Shown here: positions 2,315-43,579 of the stretch, in pieces
Position numbering within the stretch: the first letter of the stretch is position 1
How the letters are laid out: each line of letters starts with the position of its first letter
IMG/VR virus record: IMGVR_UViG_3300045988_049214
Direction: 5' to 3' (one strand)
Length of the DNA stretch: 43,579 bases
Origin: a virus
The notes under the pieces: model-generated
Told to the model about the DNA's origin: nothing
Seen by the model: the letters and a program-made list of their open reading frames with translations, nothing else
Databases searched by the model: none
Made by a program: the position numbers and the translations under genes

Positions 2315-3440
2315 TGTCAAGTGGATCAAGATTACAACAGACATCTTCGATGACGAGAAGATTCTCCTGATCGAGAGCTTGCCGGATGCTGATGCAATCA
2401 TTGTGATTTGGTTTAAATTGCTGTGCTTAGCCGGTAAGATGAATAATTCTGGCGTGTTCATGATGAACAACCGGATTGCCTTCACGGACAAGATGTTGGC
2501 AACGATATTCCGGCGTAAGGAATCGACTGTTCAGTTAGCTTTGAGTACCTTCGCAGCATACGGAATGATTGAGGTTATTGACGATGTAATCACCATTCCG
2601 AACTGGGGAAAACATCAGAATTTAGACAGCATTGAAAGCAAAAATGAGTACATGCGAGAGTATATGAAGGAGTACCGGAAGAAACAAAAGAAACTTACTG
2701 GAAACAACAAGCTTTGTGAAAATGGGCTGTCGGTGAATGATTGGAAGGCTGTGCTTGATTATTTCAATCACAAATGTGCATATTGTGGTTCAAAAGAGGA
2801 TTTGGAACAGGAACACATCGTACCGGTGAGCGACGGTGGCACATATGCCATCGGGAATATTGTTCCAGCTTGCAGAAAATGCAATGCAAGCAAGGGAAAT
2901 AAAAATCTTGATGACTGGTACAGAAATTCAGGGGTGTTTGATTCTGAAAGGCTCGAAAAACTGTATGAATACCGACGTAAAACTAACGTTAATGGTTTAC
3001 GTAAAACTAACGTTAGCTCCCTAGAAGAAGATATAGAACTAGAAGGAGATACAGAAGGAGAAAAAGAAAAGAATAATATAACTACAACTTGTAAACAAGT
3101 TGTTAGTATGTACCACAAAATTTGCATTTCGTACCCTTCTGTCAAGGTCATCAACGAAGATAGAAAGAAAGCTATCAAGGCACGATTGAAGACGTATAGC
3201 CTTGAAGACTTCAAAGCTTTGTTCGAGAAAGCAGAGGCATCGACCTTTTTGAAGGGCGGAAATGACCGGAATTGGTCAGCAGATTTTGACTGGCTCATTA
3301 AGGACTCAAGCATGGCGAAGGTGCTTGAAGGCAAGTATGACAACAGATCTGGGGGCAGAAATCAAGCACCGAACAAGACAGCACAGCAGTTAGATGATTT
3401 TTATGACATGGCTGCCAGATGGGCAGCAGAGGGGGAATGA
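2307..3440 (+). CDS. Phage replisome organizer / replication initiator with an internal HNH endonuclease domain and a conserved phage C-terminal domain
   Basis: N-terminus KWIKITTDIFDDEKI...WFKLLCLAGK is replisome-organizer-like. Middle segment CAYCG...EHIVP...CRKCNASKGNK is HNH. C-terminus NWSADFDWLIKD...VLEGKY is the conserved phage C-terminal domain. Confidence 0.75.
   Translation: MSDVKWIKITTDIFDDEKILLIESLPDADAIIVIWFKLLCLAGKMNNSGVFMMNNRIAFTDKMLATIFRRKESTVQLALSTFAAYGMIEVIDDVITIPNWGKHQNLDSIESKNEYMREYMKEYRKKQKKLTGNNKLCENGLSVNDWKAVLDYFNHKCAYCGSKEDLEQEHIVPVSDGGTYAIGNIVPACRKCNASKGNKNLDDWYRNSGVFDSERLEKLYEYRRKTNVNGLRKTNVSSLEEDIELEGDTEGEKEKNNITTTCKQVVSMYHKICISYPSVKVINEDRKKAIKARLKTYSLEDFKALFEKAEASTFLKGGNDRNWSADFDWLIKDSSMAKVLEGKYDNRSGGRNQAPNKTAQQLDDFYDMAARWAAEGE
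2975..3015 (+). repeat. Two exact 17-nt direct repeats ACGTAAAACTAACGTTA (2975-2991, 2999-3015; period 24 nt), each ending in the palindrome TAACGTTA; iteron-like, candidate origin
   Basis: Direct reading. Located inside the replication-initiator gene and followed by a purine/AT-rich stretch (3016-3100). Confidence 0.6.
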
Positions 3441-31860: not shown

Positions 31861-32217
31861 GTGAAAGGCGTGGATTTGAACGAGATTAATGCTGAGATTG
31901 CGAAGCTTGAAGCGGGCGGCACAAATTATGCAGTCTGCGAAAAACTGGCGTGCCTCTATACGGTCCGTGACGGGCTTCAGAATGGAAGAGAGCCGGAACA
32001 GACAAGGAATATAGACGAATACAGCTATGCTTCAAATCCGCGCCAGATAGTCGCAGACGAGCCTCAGAGCGAATTCTCTCAGGCAGCTTACAGTGTGCCT
32101 GTAGATGCGCTTATATCCGTCATGAATGAACACATGGAAGCGATACGGGCCATCTATCCGAAAGAATACAGCGCCATTGTTGAGCGCCTGAAAAACGAAA
32201 GAAGGGCGGGAGATTAG
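31861..32217 (+). CDS. Hypothetical protein
   Basis: GTG start 4 nt after the upstream stop; last gene of the + cargo block. Confidence 0.45.
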   Translation: MKGVDLNEINAEIAKLEAGGTNYAVCEKLACLYTVRDGLQNGREPEQTRNIDEYSYASNPRQIVADEPQSEFSQAAYSVPVDALISVMNEHMEAIRAIYPKEYSAIVERLKNERRAGD

Positions 32218-32230
32218 TCCCGTCCTTTTT
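32204..32230. terminator. Terminator hairpin between convergent genes
   Basis: GGGCGGGA-GATTAG-TCCCGTCC followed by TTTTT on the + strand; T-rich on the other side as well. Confidence 0.65.
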
Positions 32231-32237
32231 ATAGTTG

Positions 32238-32594
32238 TTAAGCCCTAACAGCCTCTCGCATAAGCTTCCATACACCCTGAGTCATTACTTCTATAAGTTC
32301 GCCGTTTGATTCCTCAAGCTGGTTATATCCCTCTTCGAAAGAATCTAAAAGACTGTCCACGAAATTCTGATCGGAGTAACTGAGAGTTTTATAATCCACC
32401 AGTTCCCCGTCGTGGTAAATCTCGATCACTTTCGAAGGGTCGATATAGTATTCTTCGCCTTCAAATTCTTCTCCTTCCCCATAAGTTTCTCTTTTAACAA
32501 GTTTGCTGTAATCAACCGGTTTTTCGGGTTCCAGTTCTTCGGACATTCTTTTTAATGCCCCAATCATTTTGTCATCTATTTGCATCTCTGCCAT
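32238..32594 (-). CDS. Hypothetical strongly acidic protein (mini-operon 2, second gene)
   Basis: 118 aa, D/E-rich; coupled 2 nt after the upstream gene. Confidence 0.55.
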   Translation of the reverse strand: MAEMQIDDKMIGALKRMSEELEPEKPVDYSKLVKRETYGEGEEFEGEEYYIDPSKVIEIYHDGELVDYKTLSYSDQNFVDSLLDSFEEGYNQLEESNGELIEVMTQGVWKLMREAVRA

Positions 32595-32596
32595 TT

Positions 32597-32794
32597 TTAT
32601 TCCTCCTCTATATTTCTATATTCTGTGATGAAGTTTTTTTCATCACATTCAGAAAGTATGCCACTAGGTACATACTTCCATTCCTTTGTATACGGAAGTT
32701 TAGCTCCTCCAAAGTAAGCTTCCGTAACAATTCCGCATCCGACCGCTTCTGGATCATTAACAGCTGTCGTCCTAATTTCGTATTTCATCTTCAT
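32597..32794 (-). CDS. Hypothetical 65-aa protein (mini-operon 2, first gene)
   Basis: AAGGAGGAAA RBS downstream of promoter copy A. Confidence 0.55.
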   Translation of the reverse strand: MKMKYEIRTTAVNDPEAVGCGIVTEAYFGGAKLPYTKEWKYVPSGILSECDEKNFITEYRNIEEE

Positions 32795-32805
32795 TTCCTC
32801 CTTGA

Positions 32806-32862
32806 ATGTTGTCTTCTTTAACTGTCTTTATTATAGCATAGTGGACACCACTAGTCAAGGGG
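32806..32862 (-). promoter_or_regulatory. 57-bp promoter/operator repeat, copy A: TTGACT-N17-TATAAT with TG extension; palindrome TAGTGG-N3-CCACTA in the spacer
   Basis: -35 at 32853-32858 and -10 at 32830-32835 (minus strand). 55/57 identical to 34213-34269. Confidence 0.8.
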
Positions 32863-33045
32863 GTTTGTGTCCTTTTCTATTATTATTTTACCCTCATCTA
32901 AGGTCATCAAAACGCCTCTGTCTTCTTCGGTGATCCCAAGTGCCCTTATCATATCCACTGGGATGGAAACGCGGTAGTTTTTTGTGCCTTTGCCGGATGT
33001 CCCTCCGGCTTTATTTATCATTATATTCCTATTCACCTGTACCAT
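32851..33045 (-). CDS. AbrB/MazE/SpoVT-type small DNA-binding protein
   Basis: YRVSIPVDMIRALGITEEDRGVLMTLDEGKIIIEK is a looped-hinge-helix signature. Confidence 0.65.
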   Translation of the reverse strand: MVQVNRNIMINKAGGTSGKGTKNYRVSIPVDMIRALGITEEDRGVLMTLDEGKIIIEKDTNPLD

Positions 33046-33889
33046 TTTCCTGCTCCTTATTTATTTTTTCTATAATTATTTTGTTGTCTTCCATTTTCAG
33101 GACAACTTCCCGATCATCAAACGTTATTCCCAGTTTCTTGACCATTCGTGACGGTAGGCTTAATTTGTATTGATATGATGTTTTTGATTTGTCAAACATA
33201 ACTGTTCTTTTTTCAACCATCATTTCACCCTCGTGCTTGTCCAGTATCGGAGCAAACATTTCTTCTTCTGCGGCTTTTCTGGCTTTGGCAGCATCTTCTA
33301 TATTGTCATATCGCCCCAGACGGTAATTTTTTCCCTGAAATCCAATTTGAGCAGTCCATTTTTCACGTGAACTGTCCCAGAACACCCCTTTTACGCCGGA
33401 GGTATTATTTCTTAACATTGTATCGGACAGTCCCATAAGTCGGGTGCTGTCCACACAATCTTTTTTCTCAAATCTTTTGAGATTTTTAACGCCGATCGTT
33501 TTGCCGTGTTCTTTAAGCATACATCCGCAACTTTTTATTTCTCCGGAAATAAGTTTCGAAGCCACAACCTCTGTCATATTGCCACAGTCACAACGACATT
33601 TCCAGACTACTTCGCCGTTTTTTCTTTCTTTGAGCGGTTCAAGTGCAACAAGCCTTCCGGAACGTTGACCTTTTATTTCTGCCGGTTTAAAACGAGTCTG
33701 TTTGTTTAAACACCCACAACTTTTGACGTTGGGATTGTCGAGTGTGTCTTTTCTTATCCACCTTTGTTTATGACAGATGGGACATTCTATAAATACGTAA
33801 CCTCTGCCGTTTTCCCTTTTGGCCTGGATTACCTTAAAACCTTTGTATTCTGTACCAACCAATTCGTTGATACTCTCAACCATTTTCAT
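33029..33889 (-). CDS. Multidomain DNA-binding protein: two Zn-ribbon-like repeats + AP2 domain + C-terminal AbrB-like domain
   Basis: CPICHK...KSCGC and CRCDCGN...KSCGC are Zn-ribbon-like. SGVKGVFWDSSREKWTAQIGFQGKNYRLGRYDNIEDAAKARKAAE is AP2. YKLSLPSRMVKKLGITFDDREVVLKMEDNKIIIEK is AbrB-like. ATG 33889 follows AGGAGGA. Confidence 0.65.
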   Translation of the reverse strand: MKMVESINELVGTEYKGFKVIQAKRENGRGYVFIECPICHKQRWIRKDTLDNPNVKSCGCLNKQTRFKPAEIKGQRSGRLVALEPLKERKNGEVVWKCRCDCGNMTEVVASKLISGEIKSCGCMLKEHGKTIGVKNLKRFEKKDCVDSTRLMGLSDTMLRNNTSGVKGVFWDSSREKWTAQIGFQGKNYRLGRYDNIEDAAKARKAAEEEMFAPILDKHEGEMMVEKRTVMFDKSKTSYQYKLSLPSRMVKKLGITFDDREVVLKMEDNKIIIEKINKEQENGTGE

Positions 33890-33916
33890 TTTTTTGATCC
33901 TCCTAGCATTCACAAA

Positions 33917-34186
33917 CTAGTATTCACAAACGTCAGCAACTTTTAAGATGAAGGCGGCTGAATCTTCGTCTTCACCATCAATAGTAATTTCAAAGCTGAT
34001 TCTGATTTCAGCTACATCTGTATCACAAGCTGTATAGTATACACATTTATCAGCTTTGATATCATCCGTTGCACCATCATCAAGAACAGAGTAGTAACCA
34101 TTCTCGACCATGTAAGAATCAAGTTCTGTAAAATACATTTCCTTATTTACAAGTGCCTTTTTGATTTCGTTTGCTAATGTTTTCAT
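33917..34186 (-). CDS. Hypothetical acidic 89-aa protein (mini-operon 1, first gene)
   Basis: AAGGAGAT RBS downstream of promoter copy B. Confidence 0.55.
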   Translation of the reverse strand: MKTLANEIKKALVNKEMYFTELDSYMVENGYYSVLDDGATDDIKADKCVYYTACDTDVAEIRISFEITIDGEDEDSAAFILKVADVCEY

Positions 34187-34212
34187 ATTTCATATCTCCT
34201 TTTTTAATTGGT

Positions 34213-34269
34213 ATGTTGTCTTCCTTAACTGTCTTTATTATAACATAGTGGACACCACTAGTCAAGGGG
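34213..34269 (-). promoter_or_regulatory. 57-bp promoter/operator repeat, copy B
   Basis: -35 at 34260-34265 and -10 at 34237-34242 (minus strand), 17-nt spacer with the same palindrome. Confidence 0.8.
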
Positions 34270-34292
34270 TAAATCGAAAAAAGATGAAAAAT

Positions 34293-34340
34293 ATATACAA
34301 CATGAGTATGCAGATGAATCTGAATACTCATGATGTATAT
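34293..34340. other. 48-bp imperfect palindrome (22-nt arms, 2 mismatches, 4-nt centre TGAA) just downstream of the integrase gene; attP candidate (or int terminator)
   Basis: ATATACAACATGAGTATGCAGA-TGAA-TCTGAATACTCATGATGTATAT. Confidence 0.4.
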
Positions 34341-34349
34341 CTGAAAGCG

Positions 34350-35855
34350 TCAAATTAAAAGCTCTATATCGAGCGCGTATGATGGTTTTTCTTTTCTGCC
34401 TAAAAATATATAATCTATCCTCTTCACAGCGTTTTTTAGAAGTATATTTTTCTCTTCCGCTGAAAGATCATCGTTCCTGAGGCCATCAACCGCGGCTCGT
34501 AATCTAACAACTTGATCATTGTAATTTATACGCTTCGGCCGGTTCTTCTTTAATGTGTCTATCTTTTGACTCAGATCATTCATCTCCGCCCTGATAGAGC
34601 TGTTACGCTCTAAAAAAACTTCTTCCGAATAGATTCCCTTTTCAAGTAGGTCATATTGCTTCTTTTCTTGCTCTGCCATCGATTGTAGTTCATCTTCCAT
34701 CCTCTGTATCTGCTTTGCGTAAATGCTGTCATCGTCCGAATCACTGCTGTTTGTTCTCGCTTCTAACTCTATAGAAATCGACTCAAGCGAATTGGAGACG
34801 TTCTTTATCGTTTCGTACAGGTATGCAGACTTTCCTCCACACCCTTTTGTCCGGCATTCTATACGGTCCTTTTTGTTTTCATGATAAGGGTGCCGCGTCA
34901 TTGATCGGCCACATTCGGAACAGTATACCAGTCCGGCTAGAGGGTTTTTGATTGCATGATCTATGTGTGCACGTGGGTCGTTTTTGAGCATTATCTGCAC
35001 ACCGTCATATACATATTCTTCTACAAGTCCCTTGTGTCTTCCTCTTACTAATACAACGTCTTCGGGGTCGGCCGTGCTTTTCTTTCTTACAAGATGCCCG
35101 TCCTCATATGAAAATTCGGTTTTTGTATACGCAAAACGGACGTATCCTTTGTAATGAGGATTCTGAAGAATGAAACTCACAGAAGAACGCTCCCACTTTT
35201 TGCCTCGTGGCGGCTTGACGTCTATGCTGTTTAGATAGAACGCAATTCGTCCCAGACTTTTGTGTTCAAAAAATTTCATATCAAAAATTTTCGTTACAAC
35301 CCAACCGAACTCACCGACTTTCAGTGTCGGGCCGATTTCGTCATTCACCTTTTCGTAACCGTACGGCGGTATGCTGCCGATAAAATTCCCCTTCTGAGCC
35401 GACAGGACTCGACCACGCCAAAGAATCTCCTTTGTGTATTCAAGATAGTCGTTCCCTCGCATTAGTTCCTGTTCAAAAAATTTGCGCTGCATCTTGTTCG
35501 ACAGGTCGTATTCCATCTGAAGCGTTATAATGCGCGTGTTCGAATACCTGAAAGCGTTTTCGACCTTTCCACAGTCTTCCAGATCGCCTCTTGTGAGTCG
35601 CTGCGGTTCGACAGTAAGAACAGCCTTAACATTGTCAGCTTCGATGATCCGCAGCAGCTCTATCATCTTCGGACGTTCAATGATAGTTTCACCAGATACG
35701 ACTTCGCGAAGAATGTGATCTTCGCGGATGCGATAGCCGAGCTTTTTCAGTGCCAGTTCCTGAAGCATAGTTTCGTGCCTGGCAAGTACATCCTCTACAG
35801 ATTCAAGAGGACTGTCAGCCCGACTTTTTCTTAGATAGATATAATATTCGTACAT
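34350..35855 (-). CDS. int: Large serine recombinase (integrase)
   Basis: N-terminal resolvase domain (YIYLRKSRAD catalytic Ser region), recombinase domain, Zn-ribbon CSECG...C..KGC, C-terminal coiled coil; 501 aa. Confidence 0.9.
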   Translation of the reverse strand: MYEYYIYLRKSRADSPLESVEDVLARHETMLQELALKKLGYRIREDHILREVVSGETIIERPKMIELLRIIEADNVKAVLTVEPQRLTRGDLEDCGKVENAFRYSNTRIITLQMEYDLSNKMQRKFFEQELMRGNDYLEYTKEILWRGRVLSAQKGNFIGSIPPYGYEKVNDEIGPTLKVGEFGWVVTKIFDMKFFEHKSLGRIAFYLNSIDVKPPRGKKWERSSVSFILQNPHYKGYVRFAYTKTEFSYEDGHLVRKKSTADPEDVVLVRGRHKGLVEEYVYDGVQIMLKNDPRAHIDHAIKNPLAGLVYCSECGRSMTRHPYHENKKDRIECRTKGCGGKSAYLYETIKNVSNSLESISIELEARTNSSDSDDDSIYAKQIQRMEDELQSMAEQEKKQYDLLEKGIYSEEVFLERNSSIRAEMNDLSQKIDTLKKNRPKRINYNDQVVRLRAAVDGLRNDDLSAEEKNILLKNAVKRIDYIFLGRKEKPSYALDIELLI

Positions 35856-38229: not shown

Positions 38230-38275
38230 GCAACAAAGTAGCGAAAAAGTTATTGACATGCGCAACGTTGTAGCG
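38230..38275 (+). promoter_or_regulatory. Operator-like repeats GCAAC-N3-GTAGCG (38230-38243 and 38262-38275); related GTAGCAAACAAC at 38291-38302
   Basis: Direct reading. The second copy fills the spacer of the rightward promoter. Confidence 0.5.
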
Positions 38276-43039: not shown

Positions 43040-43579
43040 ATGAAAGGCTACAAAGGATTTAGAAAAGGTCTTATATGCAAAGGAAAACAATATGCAGAGA
43101 ATACTGTTTTTGAAGAAGAAGAAGCCGTGATTCTTAAAAAGGGGATGCATTTTTGCAAAAATCCGTTTGACGTTCTTGATTATTACGGCTTCGTAGATGA
43201 AAAAGGAAGTATGAACGAATTTGCAGAAGTTGAATCGTTAAATGACACATACACATATACAAACGATGATAAAAATTATTGCACGACCAAACTGAAGGTA
43301 GGTGCAAAGCTGTCGTTTGCCGGATTTGTTAAGACGTGCGTTGATTTTGTTCTCGAAAAAACGACGGTAGAGATAGGAGATGCCGACGAAAATAAGATTG
43401 TGTCTTCCGGGAACTATGCGCAGATCGGGTCTTCCGGTGACTCTGCGAAGATTGGGTCTTCCGGGTACTATGCGCAGATTGGGTCTTCCGGTGACTATGC
43501 GCAGATTGGGTCTTCCGGGTACTATGCGCAGATTGGGTCTTCCGGTGACTCTGCGCAGATTGGGTCTTCCGGTGACTCT
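43040..43579 (+). CDS. N-terminal part of the tandem-repeat protein (DUF7666-like N-domain followed by nonapeptide repeats); continues at nt 2 across the circular junction
   Basis: MKGYKGF...GMHFCKNPFDVLDYY N-domain, then SSG[DY][YS]A[QK]IG repeats. No stop before the window end. Confidence 0.7.
   Translation, partial: MKGYKGFRKGLICKGKQYAENTVFEEEEAVILKKGMHFCKNPFDVLDYYGFVDEKGSMNEFAEVESLNDTYTYTNDDKNYCTTKLKVGAKLSFAGFVKTCVDFVLEKTTVEIGDADENKIVSSGNYAQIGSSGDSAKIGSSGYYAQIGSSGDYAQIGSSGYYAQIGSSGDSAQIGSSGDS
43403..43579 (+). repeat. 27-nt in-frame tandem repeat (about 6.5 units)
   Basis: Direct reading; same family as 1-95. Confidence 0.95.

Follow-up and report, generated by a model that had tools for sequence, protein, structure and literature searches.

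A repeated phage promoter with a putative AbrB-type operator in its spacer precedes exchangeable small genes

Why would a gut-bacterial phage carry the same promoter twice beside its integrase gene, each time with a palindrome between the -35 and -10 hexamers? We addressed this question for IMG/VR virus record IMGVR_UViG_3300045988_049214; the window is the whole 43,579-nucleotide stretch of DNA analyzed. In our judgement, it is likely that each repeat is a strong housekeeping-sigma promoter combined with a spacer operator for an AbrB-fold autorepressor, and that it drives swappable accessory genes, most likely ones for anti-defence. The argument is built on features that could be established directly, namely the sequence anatomy, the conservation pattern, gene co-occurrence, symmetric variants that track protein divergence, and the assignment of a protein fold.

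A sequence-only reading had described a 57-bp duplication containing a -35 hexamer, a 17-nt spacer, a TGnTATAAT element, and a leader. Direct comparison of the letters bears this out, as 32806-32862 and 34213-34269 are identical at 55 of 57 positions. Read on the minus strand, both copies have the form CCCC-TTGACT-AGTGGTGTCCACTATG(T/C)-TATAAT-AAAGACAGTTAA(G/A)GAAGACAACAT. A repeat search widens the pair to 76 nt with 86% identity (32787-32862 and 34194-34269), of which the 57 bp are the high-identity part. Both copies are of the sigma-70/SigA type, with TTGACT and TATAAT agreeing at 11 of 12 hexamer positions across a 17-nt spacer, and are the top matches of this type within 31.5-37.5 kb. Each has an extended -10 element, in which TG lies one base upstream of TATAAT. 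The two cassettes, defined by sequence anatomy, repeat search, and conservation over about 90 copies, comprise the following elements.

34213..34269, minus strand: promoter cassette copy B
34265-34260, minus strand: -35 hexamer TTGACT of copy B
34260-34246, minus strand: dyad TAGTGG-TGT-CCACTA of copy B, putative operator
34245-34244 and 34242-34237, minus strand: TG and -10 hexamer TATAAT of copy B
34236-34213, minus strand: conserved leader AAAGACAGTTAAGGAAGACAACAT of copy B
near 34230/34229, minus strand: predicted transcription start of copy B
32806..32862, minus strand: promoter cassette copy A
32858-32853 and 32853-32839, minus strand: -35 hexamer and dyad of copy A
32838-32837, 32835-32830 and 32829-32806, minus strand: TG, -10 hexamer and leader of copy A
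near 32823/32822, minus strand: predicted transcription start of copy A

The 15-bp dyad TAGTGG-TGT-CCACTA occupies the spacer of both promoters, sharing its first base with the end of the -35 hexamer and stopping 3 nt short of the -10 hexamer. The inverted repeat TAGTGG-N3-CCACTA reported for the spacer is thereby confirmed and limited to two sites in the window (32839-32853 and 34246-34260), even with up to two mismatches permitted. Likewise, the window contains two copies of the 29-mer TTGACTAGTGGTGTCCACTATGYTATAAT and no more (minus strand, 32830-32858 and 34237-34265), and 0 of 100 shuffles matched it. The dyad was also correctly described as unrelated to the CI/Cro-type GCAAC-N3-GTAGC repeats, which lie at 38230-38274. 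A riboswitch, attenuator, or terminator reading of the repeat was dropped on three grounds: an Rfam search of 32000-34600 matched no family up to E <= 1; shuffled sequence is more structured than the leader RNA; and the palindrome forms an ordinary RNA hairpin with 6-bp arms (-5.9 kcal/mol, z = 0.1 versus shuffled).

The genes behind copies A and B lie where they had been placed, all on the minus strand, and are listed here with the neighboring elements.

33917..34186, minus strand: 89-aa cargo gene 1 of operon B, the first gene behind copy B
33029..33889, minus strand: 286-aa cargo gene 2 of operon B, AP2-AbrB protein (294 aa if the start is GTG 33913)
32851..33045, minus strand: 64-aa AbrB/MazE/SpoVT-fold gene, last of operon B (cluster C0, phrog_2329)
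32597..32794, minus strand: 65-aa cargo gene 1 of operon A, behind copy A
32238..32594, minus strand: 118-aa cargo gene 2 of operon A, behind copy A
32199..32230, no strand: G+C-rich stem-loop, bidirectional terminator shared by the minus-strand module and the late genes converging on it from the plus strand
34293..34340, no strand: imperfect palindrome of 23 + 2 + 23 nt (arms 91% complementary, 2 nt apart), candidate attP core

The 64-aa AbrB-like gene ends inside promoter A: its final codons overlap the promoter, and its TAG stop codon directly follows TTGAC. A search for terminators combined with RNA folding found none between this stop codon and promoter A, and the downstream operon is therefore probably also transcribed by read-through from promoter B. 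The description of two mini-operons thus holds for the placement of genes and promoters and probably fails for their transcriptional separation. The palindrome at 34293-34340 sits between the serine-integrase stop codon and promoter B, and is kept in the related loci L001, L002, and L017. It is read as a candidate attP core because of the known form of serine-integrase attP sites; if so, promoter B would be about 50 bp from the prophage end after integration. With this far better attP-like palindrome 30 bp away, the spacer palindrome was rejected as an integrase site.

The duplication had been considered unusual, which it is not in this phage group. The same 41-bp core is present in 1-3 copies per genome in at least 45 IMG/VR phage contigs, a third copy occurring in sister phages; the approximately 90 copies are not fully independent, since a single IMG/VR data set (3300045988) supplied most of the viral loci. 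Across 64 distinct core copies, positions 1-41 hold 1.4-2.0 bits each, except for the two-state centre triplet (about 1.0-1.2 bits), these figures being limited by search patterns that fixed most core positions: a first scan left the -35 hexamer, centre triplet, TG, and leader unfixed, and a second left the spacer unfixed. The n of TGn is the sole freely varying core position (0.22 bits, all four bases found), and both flanks of the core drop below about 1 bit. These patterns support the view that the spacer sequence of the promoter is under strong constraint.

Gene content is far more variable. Among the 40 contigs spanning the region, a promoter comes first, then variable genes and an AbrB-like gene (58-76 aa), and in most of them a further promoter copy and more variable genes follow. 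About ten unrelated families lie directly behind promoter copies, and the 64-aa gene is the only one kept in every cassette array. In the proposed search of related phages for co-occurrence of repeat and genes, the core travels with the AbrB gene and the other genes vary. A second phage group has the array immediately upstream of its packaging genes. A distant-mode DNA search of INPHARED (GenBank phages) yielded no match for the 2.4-kb module. The exact TAGTGG promoter was not found in a scan of species-representative genomes, where most TAGTGG matches were chance or an unrelated repeat in one Clostridium MAG; host names from these genomes pertain to the TATTGG class only. The cultured relative Blautia phage Montmirail shares the arrangement, with the stop codon of the AbrB-like gene inside the -35 hexamer, a palindrome filling the spacer, and TATAAT-AAAGATAGTTAA after it. 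Its palindrome differs (ATTCGTACGAAT, 4 copies), and the recognition loop of its AbrB-like protein has diverged. Some homologues of the AbrB protein are found in operons without such a promoter, for example in phiCs5676-1.

The association between dyad and regulator was assessed with 114 loci retrieved through the leader alone. Of the 7 loci with a TA[G/T/C]TGG..CCA.TA dyad, 6 contain an AbrB gene, as against none of the 107 whose dyad is different (Fisher p = 2.6e-9); the seventh locus is a 1.4-kb fragment. Other dyad classes accompany other small regulators, namely RHH-like, HTH_26, and XRE proteins. Among the half-site variants (TAGTGG/CCACTA, TATTGG/CCAATA, and TACTGG/CCAGT(G)), both arms are always altered together, a symmetry that a requirement for hairpin formation would also produce. 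The AbrB proteins diverge along the same lines, with HMM E-values of 1e-42 to 1e-37 for the TAGTGG class, 5e-32 for TATTGG, and 1e-30 to 1e-7 for TACTGG, a covariation confounded with phylogeny because each dyad class also forms a clade of its own. Class-specific core residues are limited to S17 and T21, both in the N-terminal loop aligned with the AbrB stretch R8-R15. Taken together, co-occurrence and covariation with the AbrB gene uphold, by comparison, the suggestion that the dyad acts as an operator.

The fold of the 64-aa protein is consistent with this role. In Pfam it scores best with MazE_antitoxin (PF04014, 27.0 bits; cut-off 24.7), it matches phrog_2329 with an E-value of 3e-18, and a profile of its family retrieves the AbrB N-domain from the PDB (E 2e-4). 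In the AF2 monomer model (pLDDT 80.6), the protein is predicted to have the beta-hairpins and short helix of the swapped-hairpin fold. Foldseek ranks 1-18 are all AbrB, MazE, Abh, SpoVT, VapB, C56, C68, or Sso7c4 (probability up to 1.00, TM about 0.55); the E-values are weak (0.04) because the domain is small. R25 and R34 align with AbrB R15 and R24, two of the four AbrB arginines known to matter. Most family members have 58-65 aa, with a maximum of 76, and contain little beyond the DNA-binding domain. On this basis, we propose that the 64-aa protein is a dimeric autorepressor that binds the dyad.

The AbrB and AP2 proteins of operon B had both been put forward as the dedicated regulator. By comparison, this is supported for the 64-aa AbrB-type protein, which co-occurs and co-varies with the dyad, and not for the AP2-AbrB protein, which is outside the conserved system. 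The latter (286 aa) combines zinc-ribbon repeats, an AP2 domain (E 1.4e-7), and, at its C-terminus, an AbrB-like domain that is a paralogue of the 64-aa protein (38% identity, E 1e-11) and has a 5-residue deletion in the presumed DNA-recognition loop. It matches 'HNH endonuclease' PHROGs mainly over residues 68-135 and 160-270 and phrog_2329 over residues 227-279; Pfam and PHROG detected no nuclease domain. From its domains, it is predicted to be a DNA-binding protein. Its gene is found only in the window, L001, and L003, with other genes instead in L002, L014, and L017, and by gene content it is dispensable cargo.

These observations can be combined into a simple regulatory scheme, in which we infer the binding, repression, timing, and cargo function. 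A single swapped-hairpin dimer of the 64-aa protein would bind the 15-bp dyad TAGTGG-N3-CCACTA. As the dyad overlaps the -35 hexamer and spacer, bound repressor would exclude RNA polymerase from the promoter. Being made from promoter B, the repressor would autoregulate that promoter, and in trans it would bring promoter A, as well as the third copy in sister phages, to the same set-point. The whole would behave as one negative-feedback module, giving a burst of transcription on entry into a repressor-free cell and then shutting down to a low level. Promoter-leader and repressor gene would form the constant scaffold, and the small accessory genes the interchangeable part.

The cargo itself is exchanged between close relatives of the phage in the window, with only the promoters and the AbrB gene constant. 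The two mini-operons are hence not the one fixed functional unit that had been envisaged. The 89-aa protein is acidic (pI about 4.3), has homologues only in phage contigs, and is matched by nothing in Pfam, PHROG, PADLOC, or NCBIfam; its model is confident (pLDDT 85.8), yet it has no structural analogue in the PDB or BFVD. The 65-aa protein is likewise acidic, and an unrelated gene takes its place in L002. The 118-aa protein is very acidic (25% D+E, pI 4.2), with two other small genes replacing it in L001 and L003; its match to AcrIIA4_fam (E 0.0056) scored 16.7 bits where the cut-off is 40, and was discarded as sub-threshold and composition-driven. Searches of Pfam, PHROGs, PADLOC, NCBIfam, and structures revealed no similarity between the window's four cargo proteins and known defence or anti-defence proteins.

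Across phages, the cargo consists of small proteins, most of them acidic (pI 4.1-4.7). The same promoter precedes, in 11 sister contigs, a 283-aa protein (for example at L040:1660-2511) that corresponds to the Cas8c N-terminal domain (Pfam E 1.2e-19; PADLOC E 2.5e-29) and has no sequence match in the PDB. Ten further sister-phage cargo families gave nothing in NCBIfam. Viral homologues of Cas subunits are proven anti-CRISPRs (bioRxiv 10.1101/2023.06.24.545427). By this analogy and from the sister phages, we infer a possible anti-defence role for the cargo in the window.

The same device could instead serve another purpose. It is unlikely, though deserving of serious attention, that the cargo consists of morons or lysogenic-conversion genes (superinfection exclusion, prophage defence, or host fitness) whose expression from the prophage is set by the AbrB-like protein. 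The locus has several marks of a moron: it brings its own promoters, it ends in a terminator (32199-32230), and relatives whose flanks are 90-94% identical carry different cargo. Judged by the candidate attP, it would be at the extreme end of the prophage, convergent with late and lysis genes. The promoters have no CI-type operator and activity in the lysogen is therefore possible, and the window's cargo bears no anti-defence signature. Against such a role, PADLOC matches no cargo except the Cas8c fragment, which cannot be defence alone because the rest of the CRISPR-Cas system is missing. Furthermore, the cargo proteins are of 60-140 aa, strongly acidic, and by eye without membrane segments, which is more typical of inhibitors than of exclusion or defence systems, and the array of the second phage group is located just upstream of packaging genes.

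Two other explanations concern the palindrome. That it is the autoregulatory operator of a type II toxin-antitoxin pair, with the AbrB-like protein as antitoxin, seems very improbable: toxin-antitoxin operators are indeed palindromes in promoters, MazE_antitoxin is the best Pfam family, and some homologues in GenBank phages are annotated 'putative PemI', but many unrelated families lie before and after the AbrB gene and no neighbor is constant or matches a toxin family in Pfam, PADLOC, or NCBIfam. The AbrB-like family also has no C-terminal toxin-binding tail. This reading was rejected for want of a conserved partner gene. We give an equally small chance to the repeat being mainly a recombination device, a PeSL-like or integron-like linker that acts as a hairpin or is bound by a recombinase to exchange cassettes, with its promoter and operator functions secondary. 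Cargo replacement does start exactly at the end of the copy B leader and just past the start codon behind copy A, and the same cargo families follow different promoter copies in different phages. The palindrome centre occurs in both orientations (TGT/ACA, TTA/TAA, and ACGC/GCGT), as expected from hairpin template switching, and a serine recombinase gene adjoins. However, the arms have only 6 bp and the RNA hairpin is no stabler than shuffled sequence, the integrase has its much better attP candidate nearby, and other junctions fall at plain gene boundaries outside the repeat. Nor would a linker explain the exclusive link to the AbrB gene or the exact placement between -35 and -10. Homologous recombination between repeats is probably a by-product, compatible with the autorepressor explanation.

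The architecture of this autorepressor module would be that of an Acr-Aca operon in which an AbrB-fold regulator replaces the helix-turn-helix Aca. In passages of PMC8708921 that cite Stanley et al. 2019 and Osuna et al. 2020, Aca1/Aca2-type repressors are described as binding inverted repeats in the strong acr promoter. As in those operons, a strong promoter precedes small genes of varying identity, with a conserved gene for a small DNA-binding protein closing the operon (40 viral contigs), and the promoter contains an inverted repeat that appears regulator-specific, judged by its exclusive co-occurrence and symmetric variants, with negative autoregulation predicted. In both, the regulator can be used as a guilt-by-association marker and the module lies, here as judged by the candidate attP, at a prophage end. 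The present system differs in the AbrB swapped-hairpin fold of its regulator and in repeating an identical promoter-operator-leader 2-3 times, such that one repressor would serve several cassettes; the anti-defence activity of its cargo is putative. To our knowledge, the named Aca families are all helix-turn-helix proteins, and no paper linking the AbrB fold to Aca or anti-CRISPR-associated regulators was found in the searchable literature.

Similar designs are known elsewhere. In archaeal rudiviruses and lipothrixviruses, one conserved strong-promoter sequence precedes many unrelated small anti-defence genes of a given virus, is proposed to be shut off by the small viral regulator Aca8, and has been used as a motif to predict anti-defence genes (PMC11065993). 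The likeness lies in a single conserved promoter, many unrelated small genes, and one proposed small viral regulator; in place of the archaeal BRE/TATA elements and winged-helix Aca8, the phages have a bacterial -35/-10 promoter, a spacer dyad, and an AbrB-fold protein. The PeSL cassettes of T4-type phages consist of an early promoter and a terminator stem-loop, with no dedicated repressor (PMC2839356, PMC4122927). Common to both systems are hypervariable small ORFs flanked by repeated promoter motifs, which coincide with the junctions at which close relatives have exchanged cassettes, whereas the present unit has no terminator (its only stem is of 6 bp, with no T-run) and the repressor gene travels along. 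By its model, the 64-aa protein shares the DNA-binding fold of AbrB/Abh/SpoVT of Bacillus, the MazE/VapB antitoxins, C56 (pSSVi), and C68 (pSSVx), and is unlike these relatives in having no C-terminal multimerization or toxin-binding domain. While AbrB binding sites are loosely defined, its putative target is a short, sharply defined 15-bp dyad, and its gene is carried by phages alongside a promoter cassette.

A broader proposition is offered tentatively, as a real possibility: that gut Clostridia phages share plug-and-play promoter cassettes that each mark an anti-defence hot-spot, that the AbrB fold is a new structural class of Aca-like regulator, and that the Cas8c fragment is a type I-C anti-CRISPR. 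One core (-35, -10, and leader AAAGACAGTTAA) would be joined to interchangeable operator-repressor pairs, comprising the AbrB fold with TA(G/T/C)TGG, RHH-like proteins with CATATT, and HTH proteins with ACATTA or ACGCA dyads.

Through this analysis, the anonymous phrog_2329 ('unknown function') and a 41-bp motif become a proposed repressor-operator pair that can be put to the test. Natural specificity variants are at hand in three symmetric half-site states and the Montmirail palindrome, and Blautia phage Montmirail with Blautia coccoides provides a cultured test system. As predicted compact, strong, and self-limiting promoters, the cassettes may also offer genetic parts for gut Clostridia. 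We know of almost no anti-defence genes from phages of Lachnospiraceae and Oscillospiraceae. If the Acr-Aca analogy is true, the motif and AbrB gene would constitute an anti-defence marker in these phages, and genes linked to the AbrB fold would escape Aca searches built on HTH proteins. A concrete anti-CRISPR candidate, with type I-C systems as its putative target, is the N-terminal fragment of Cas8c. Should the plug-and-play reading also prove true, the 41-bp motif would be a direct handle on anti-defence genes in an under-studied host group.

The promoter duplication and gene order described by the sequence-only reading are borne out in full by direct reading, a repeat search, shuffled controls and gene positions. 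On the minus strand, both copies take the form CCCC-TTGACT-AGTGGTGTCCACTATG(T/C)-TATAAT-AAAGACAGTTAA(G/A)GAAGACAACAT (direct reading of 32100-34500). The repeat search finds the pair at 34269-34213 and 32862-32806 and, at a reduced identity of 86% over 76 nt, carries it on into the ribosome-binding region. A 29-nt promoter core has exactly two occurrences in the whole 43.6 kb, against none in 100 shuffles. Copies A and B are the top sigma-70-type matches within the surrounding 6 kb: each has an extended -10, its hexamers fit at 11 of 12 positions, and 17 nt separate them. The palindrome claimed for both spacers is present: the dyad TAGTGG-N3-CCACTA starts on the final base of the -35 hexamer and stops three bases short of the -10 hexamer, right beside the TG of the extended -10. 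It has no further site in the window with two mismatches allowed. The purine-rich leader is less structured than shuffled sequence and matches no Rfam family; its appearance is that of a simple, efficient 5' UTR.

Features around the promoter repeat in the window, in minus-strand order
35855-34350, minus strand, large serine recombinase
34340-34293, imperfect palindrome (23+2+23 nt) between the serine-integrase stop codon and promoter B
34269-34213, minus strand, promoter B
34186-33917, minus strand, 89-aa gene
33889-33029, minus strand, 286-aa zinc-ribbon/AP2/AbrB-like gene
33045-32851, minus strand, 64-aa AbrB/MazE-family gene
32862-32806, minus strand, promoter A
32794-32597, minus strand, 65-aa gene
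32594-32238, minus strand, 118-aa gene
32230-32199, bidirectional terminator

The 64-aa gene ends inside promoter A, its TAG stop codon coming immediately after TTGAC. The palindrome at 34293-34340 is conserved in three close relatives of the window (L001, L002, L017) and has the form of serine-integrase sites, making it a candidate attP core; if so, integration would place promoter B about 50 bp from the prophage end, parted from int. At 33903-33931, where the stop codon of the 89-aa gene meets the ribosome-binding site of the AP2 gene, there is a direct duplication of 14 bp (CTAGCATTCACAAA on the plus strand), which may be a scar of cassette insertion. Elsewhere, two GCAAC-N3-GTAGC sites, assigned earlier to a CI/Cro-type switch, lie 32 bp apart (38230-38274) upstream of a 144-aa HTH gene (38204-37770); at one mismatch, their count is not above whole-window chance. 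The 27-bp unit AGATTGGGTCTTCCGGTGACTATGCGC is repeated in tandem at both window ends (1-91, 3.4 copies; 43395-43577, 6.8 copies), so the contig is a phage genome, circular or permuted, whose array holds about 10 copies. This array may represent iterons at a replication origin, adjoining the genes at 41-43 kb.

The exact duplication had been considered unusual; a wider search shows it instead to be a family feature. IMG/VR was scanned with TAGTGG-N3-CCACTA-N3-TAYAAT, leaving the -35 and leader free. The scan returned 45 stretches from 44 contigs, comprising 44 real instances and one chance match, and these contain 82 copies when a few mismatches are allowed, at one to three per genome. All copies have TTGAC immediately before the dyad and AAAGACAGTTAA immediately after TATAAT, though the scan demanded neither. 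In a set of 64 distinct copies, information content is 1.4-2.0 bits at most positions of the 41-bp core and 0.22 bits at the n of TGn, where any of the four bases is seen; the flanks on both sides fall below about 1 bit within 1-2 bases of the core. Since the free n and the flanks carry so little information, there appears to have been time enough to randomise an unconstrained site; the 17-nt spacer, ordinarily under less constraint than the rest of a promoter, has nevertheless been conserved.

The centre triplet of the TAGTGG dyad has only two states, TGT in the window's group and ACA in all others, which are reverse complements. Across promoter copies in L001-L237, the loci from our scans, palindrome centres come as such pairs (TGT/ACA, TTA/TAA, ACGC/GCGT), the last even inside one contig (L053, L116). 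The flipped centres look like hairpin-loop inversion by template switching and suggest that recognition by the repressor does not involve the centre. An unrelated repeat, cccTTGACTAGTGGTTCCCACTACCAAGCCCAca, found among the L170-L237 matches (e.g. L168, L172, L174), has the same dyad arms, whether by coincidence or through descent; it occurs on many contigs of two MAGs (Clostridium sp. SIG253, Clostridiaceae AS04akNAM_37), has no -10 and no AbrB gene, and may be a dispersed repeat or mobile-element end.

Association of the 64-aa protein with the dyad was assessed by scanning IMG/VR with the -10 and leader TATAATAAAGACAGTTAA only, the dyad being left out against search bias. This gave at least 120 stretches. 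Most promoters among the matches listed also have TTGAC and a spacer palindrome, and the palindromes form classes. Two are of AbrB type (TAGTGG-aca/tgt-CCACTA and TATTGG-aca/tgt-CCAATA); others among these matches include TATACTT-ccgt-AAGTATA, CATATT-acgc/gcgt-AATATG, ACATTA..TAATGT and ACGCA-a-TGCGT. When an HMM of C0, the cluster of AbrB-like genes that includes the 64-aa gene, was run on all six-frame ORFs of 161 loci, its matches were confined to loci of the TAGTGG or TATTGG class. Of the 114 listed loci that only the leader had retrieved, 7 belong to these classes and 6 of those have the AbrB gene, against 0 of the other 107 (Fisher p = 2.6e-9); the sole exception is a 1.4-kb fragment. 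Among the loci listed, other dyads are accompanied by other proteins: a 73-aa RHH-like protein with CATATT, CATATG and ACATagATGT, a 79-aa HTH_26 protein with ACATTA and TTATACATAA, and a 68-aa XRE-type protein with ACGCA. As for the leader itself, TATAATAAAGACAGTTAA is common to at least 120 viral contigs with quite different palindromes (L046-L160; e.g. L053, L073, L060, L046), the 12 nt being conserved across operator classes, and is absent from the AbrB/TATTGG promoters of bacterial genomes.

Variation within the AbrB class affects position 3, which always changes symmetrically on both arms. Besides TAGTGG/CCACTA (G class), TATTGG/CCAATA (T class) occurs in viral loci and in MAGs or isolates of Blautia, Roseburia, Acetatifactor, Lactonifactor, Faecalibacterium, Pseudoflavonifractor, Anaerofilum, Butyrivibrio and Hominisplanchenecus, and a TACTGG/CCAGT(G) variant lies at a prophage end with a 72%-identical protein. 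The C0-model match weakens in the order TAGTGG (E 1e-42 to 1e-37), TATTGG (5e-32) and TACTGG (1e-30 to 1e-7). The only core residues separating the G and T classes are S17 and T21, in the loop AGGTSGKGTKNYR. Association and symmetric covariation are the pattern expected of a dimeric repressor with its operator, with the covariation not phylogenetically independent because the dyad classes are also clades. Judging from these comparisons, the 64-aa protein and the dyad are quite probably a repressor-operator pair. Of the regulators proposed earlier, it is thus the 64-aa AbrB protein that co-occurs and covaries with the dyad, whereas the AP2-AbrB protein belongs to the cargo. At the prophage end carrying the TACTGG-class promoter (L238-L242, about 2890-3095), a tRNA-like 3' fragment with the sequence GGGGATTCGAACCCC precedes that promoter by about 100 bp, and the host flank varies from sample to sample; ARAGORN gave no intact tRNA there.

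Sequence profiles and a predicted structure identify the 64-aa protein as AbrB-like. It matches Pfam PF04014 (MazE_antitoxin, SpoVT/AbrB domain) above threshold and belongs to phrog_2329 (‘unknown function’ in PHROGs), and its homologues have a functional name in 0 of 164 clusters. A profile of 23 family members matches AbrB N-domain structures (E 2e-4) and C56 of pSSVi. The first 18 Foldseek matches of its AlphaFold model (pLDDT 80.6) are AbrB, MazE, Abh, SpoVT, VapB, C56, C68 and Sso7c4. Having no C-terminal domain, the protein is essentially half a swapped-hairpin barrel, and a single twofold-symmetric dimer fits the 6+3+6 dyad. Its loop AGGTSGKGTKNYR aligns with the R8-R15 stretch of the AbrB N-domain, and its R25 and R34 align with AbrB R15 and R24, arginines that act in DNA binding.

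A dimer bound at the dyad would keep RNA polymerase out. Copy B would be under negative autoregulation, since the proposed repressor is the last gene of its operon, and copy A (with copy 3 where present) would sit at the same set-point, controlled in trans. Operon A would probably be transcribed in two ways, from its own promoter and by read-through, because no terminator was found between the AbrB stop codon and copy A. The predicted outcome is an expression burst in a repressor-free cell, followed by shut-down.

Genes were called downstream of every promoter copy and clustered. The order is constant: promoter, variable gene(s), then a 58-76-aa C0 gene, followed in most contigs by another promoter copy with variable gene(s) and often by a third with more genes. 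C0 is found in all contigs covering the region and all other genes vary; those immediately behind promoter copies fall into about 10 unrelated families, and one family may follow the first, second or third copy depending on the phage. Close relatives of the window are 90-94% identical in the flanks, yet their cargo is swapped. L002, L014 and L017 have 127-aa and 187-aa genes in place of the 89-aa and AP2 genes, with homology breaking exactly at the end of the copy B leader (34213) and the AbrB gene start (33069); in L002 the 65-aa gene is replaced, and L001 and L003 have two other genes in place of the 118-aa gene. The co-occurrence sought in relatives holds for promoter and AbrB gene in every contig covering the region, but not for the cargo. 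The position of the array differs between groups: in that of the window it comes immediately downstream of the serine integrase, converging on late genes, and in a second one it precedes the genes of the small and large terminase, with a serine recombinase gene nearby in 26 of 46 loci. Overall, the comparisons point to a widespread, modular promoter-operator-repressor cassette of gut-Clostridia phages.

Two readings of this arrangement fare poorly. A toxin-antitoxin pair is rejected because the 64-aa gene lacks a conserved partner and its product a toxin-binding tail. That the palindrome is purely recombinational in role is unlikely: its arms are only 6 bp, a better attP candidate exists at 34293-34340, and the exclusive link with an AbrB-fold gene would be left unexplained. 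Homologous exchange at the repeated promoter-leader probably does add to mosaicism, as likewise in the PeSLs of T4-type phages (PMC2839356, PMC4122927).

Cargo proteins are 60-140 aa long and mostly very acidic (pI 4.1-4.7, up to 30% D+E). In 11 sister contigs, an operon behind the second or third promoter copy encodes a 283-aa protein corresponding to a stand-alone Cas8c N-terminal domain (PADLOC Cas8c E 2.5e-29; Pfam Cas_Csd1 E 1.2e-19 over profile positions 5-206 of 559), with no other cas gene seen among its neighbours.

Cas8c-like gene in sister contigs
L040:1660-2511, plus strand, Cas8c-like 283-aa gene; also in L019, L021, L023, L027-L029, L032, L033, L044 and L045

Some phage-borne homologues of Cascade subunits are proven anti-CRISPRs: AcrIB3 is homologous to Cas5, and AcrIB4 to the C-terminal region of Cas8b (bioRxiv 10.1101/2023.06.24.545427); the Cas8c fragment is a candidate subunit-mimic anti-CRISPR against type I-C. 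Acr-Aca operons are built in a similar way, with variable small genes behind a strong promoter that contains an inverted repeat, and with a small conserved repressor; the present loci differ in having an AbrB-fold regulator and repeated promoter copies. The early regulatory sequence shared by anti-defence genes of archaeal viruses also has a matching architecture (PMC11065993). Because of these two likenesses, an anti-defence island would be the likeliest purpose of the family, a view we hold with about even confidence. A plain moron or lysogenic-conversion module under identical regulation would be a less likely alternative. For the window's own cargo, an anti-defence purpose is suggested by analogy and is more doubtful than for the family. 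Its four proteins gave nothing informative in Pfam, PHROGs, PADLOC or NCBIfam, and a structural search with the confidently modelled 89-aa protein gave no analogue. The 286-aa protein, which is cargo rather than a conserved regulator, combines zinc ribbons, an AP2 domain and an AbrB-domain paralogue (38% identity, E 1e-11) with a 5-residue deletion in the recognition loop.

A tblastn search of GenBank phages with the 64-aa protein detected distant homologues, 40-51% identical, among the phages of Clostridium scindens, Blautia coccoides and Clostridioides difficile. Blautia phage Montmirail (ON453898; L244) has the same architecture: the stop codon of its AbrB-like gene (1152-1334) lies inside TTGAC, and the spacer of the next promoter holds the perfect palindrome CCATTCGTACGAATGG, followed by TATAAT-AAAGATAGTTAA. 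Four ATTCGTACGAAT-type palindromes surround the gene (1016-1028, 1053-1066, 1074-1086, 1337-1349): the one in that spacer and three others, two of them imperfect, in the upstream divergent promoter region, where one lies in a divergently oriented promoter copy. The loop of the Montmirail protein is unlike that of the window protein, consistent with a different specificity. Montmirail provides a cultured phage-host pair suited to tests. The value of the cassette lies mainly in the handle it gives for discovery and in the clean natural system it offers for studying how the AbrB fold recognises DNA.
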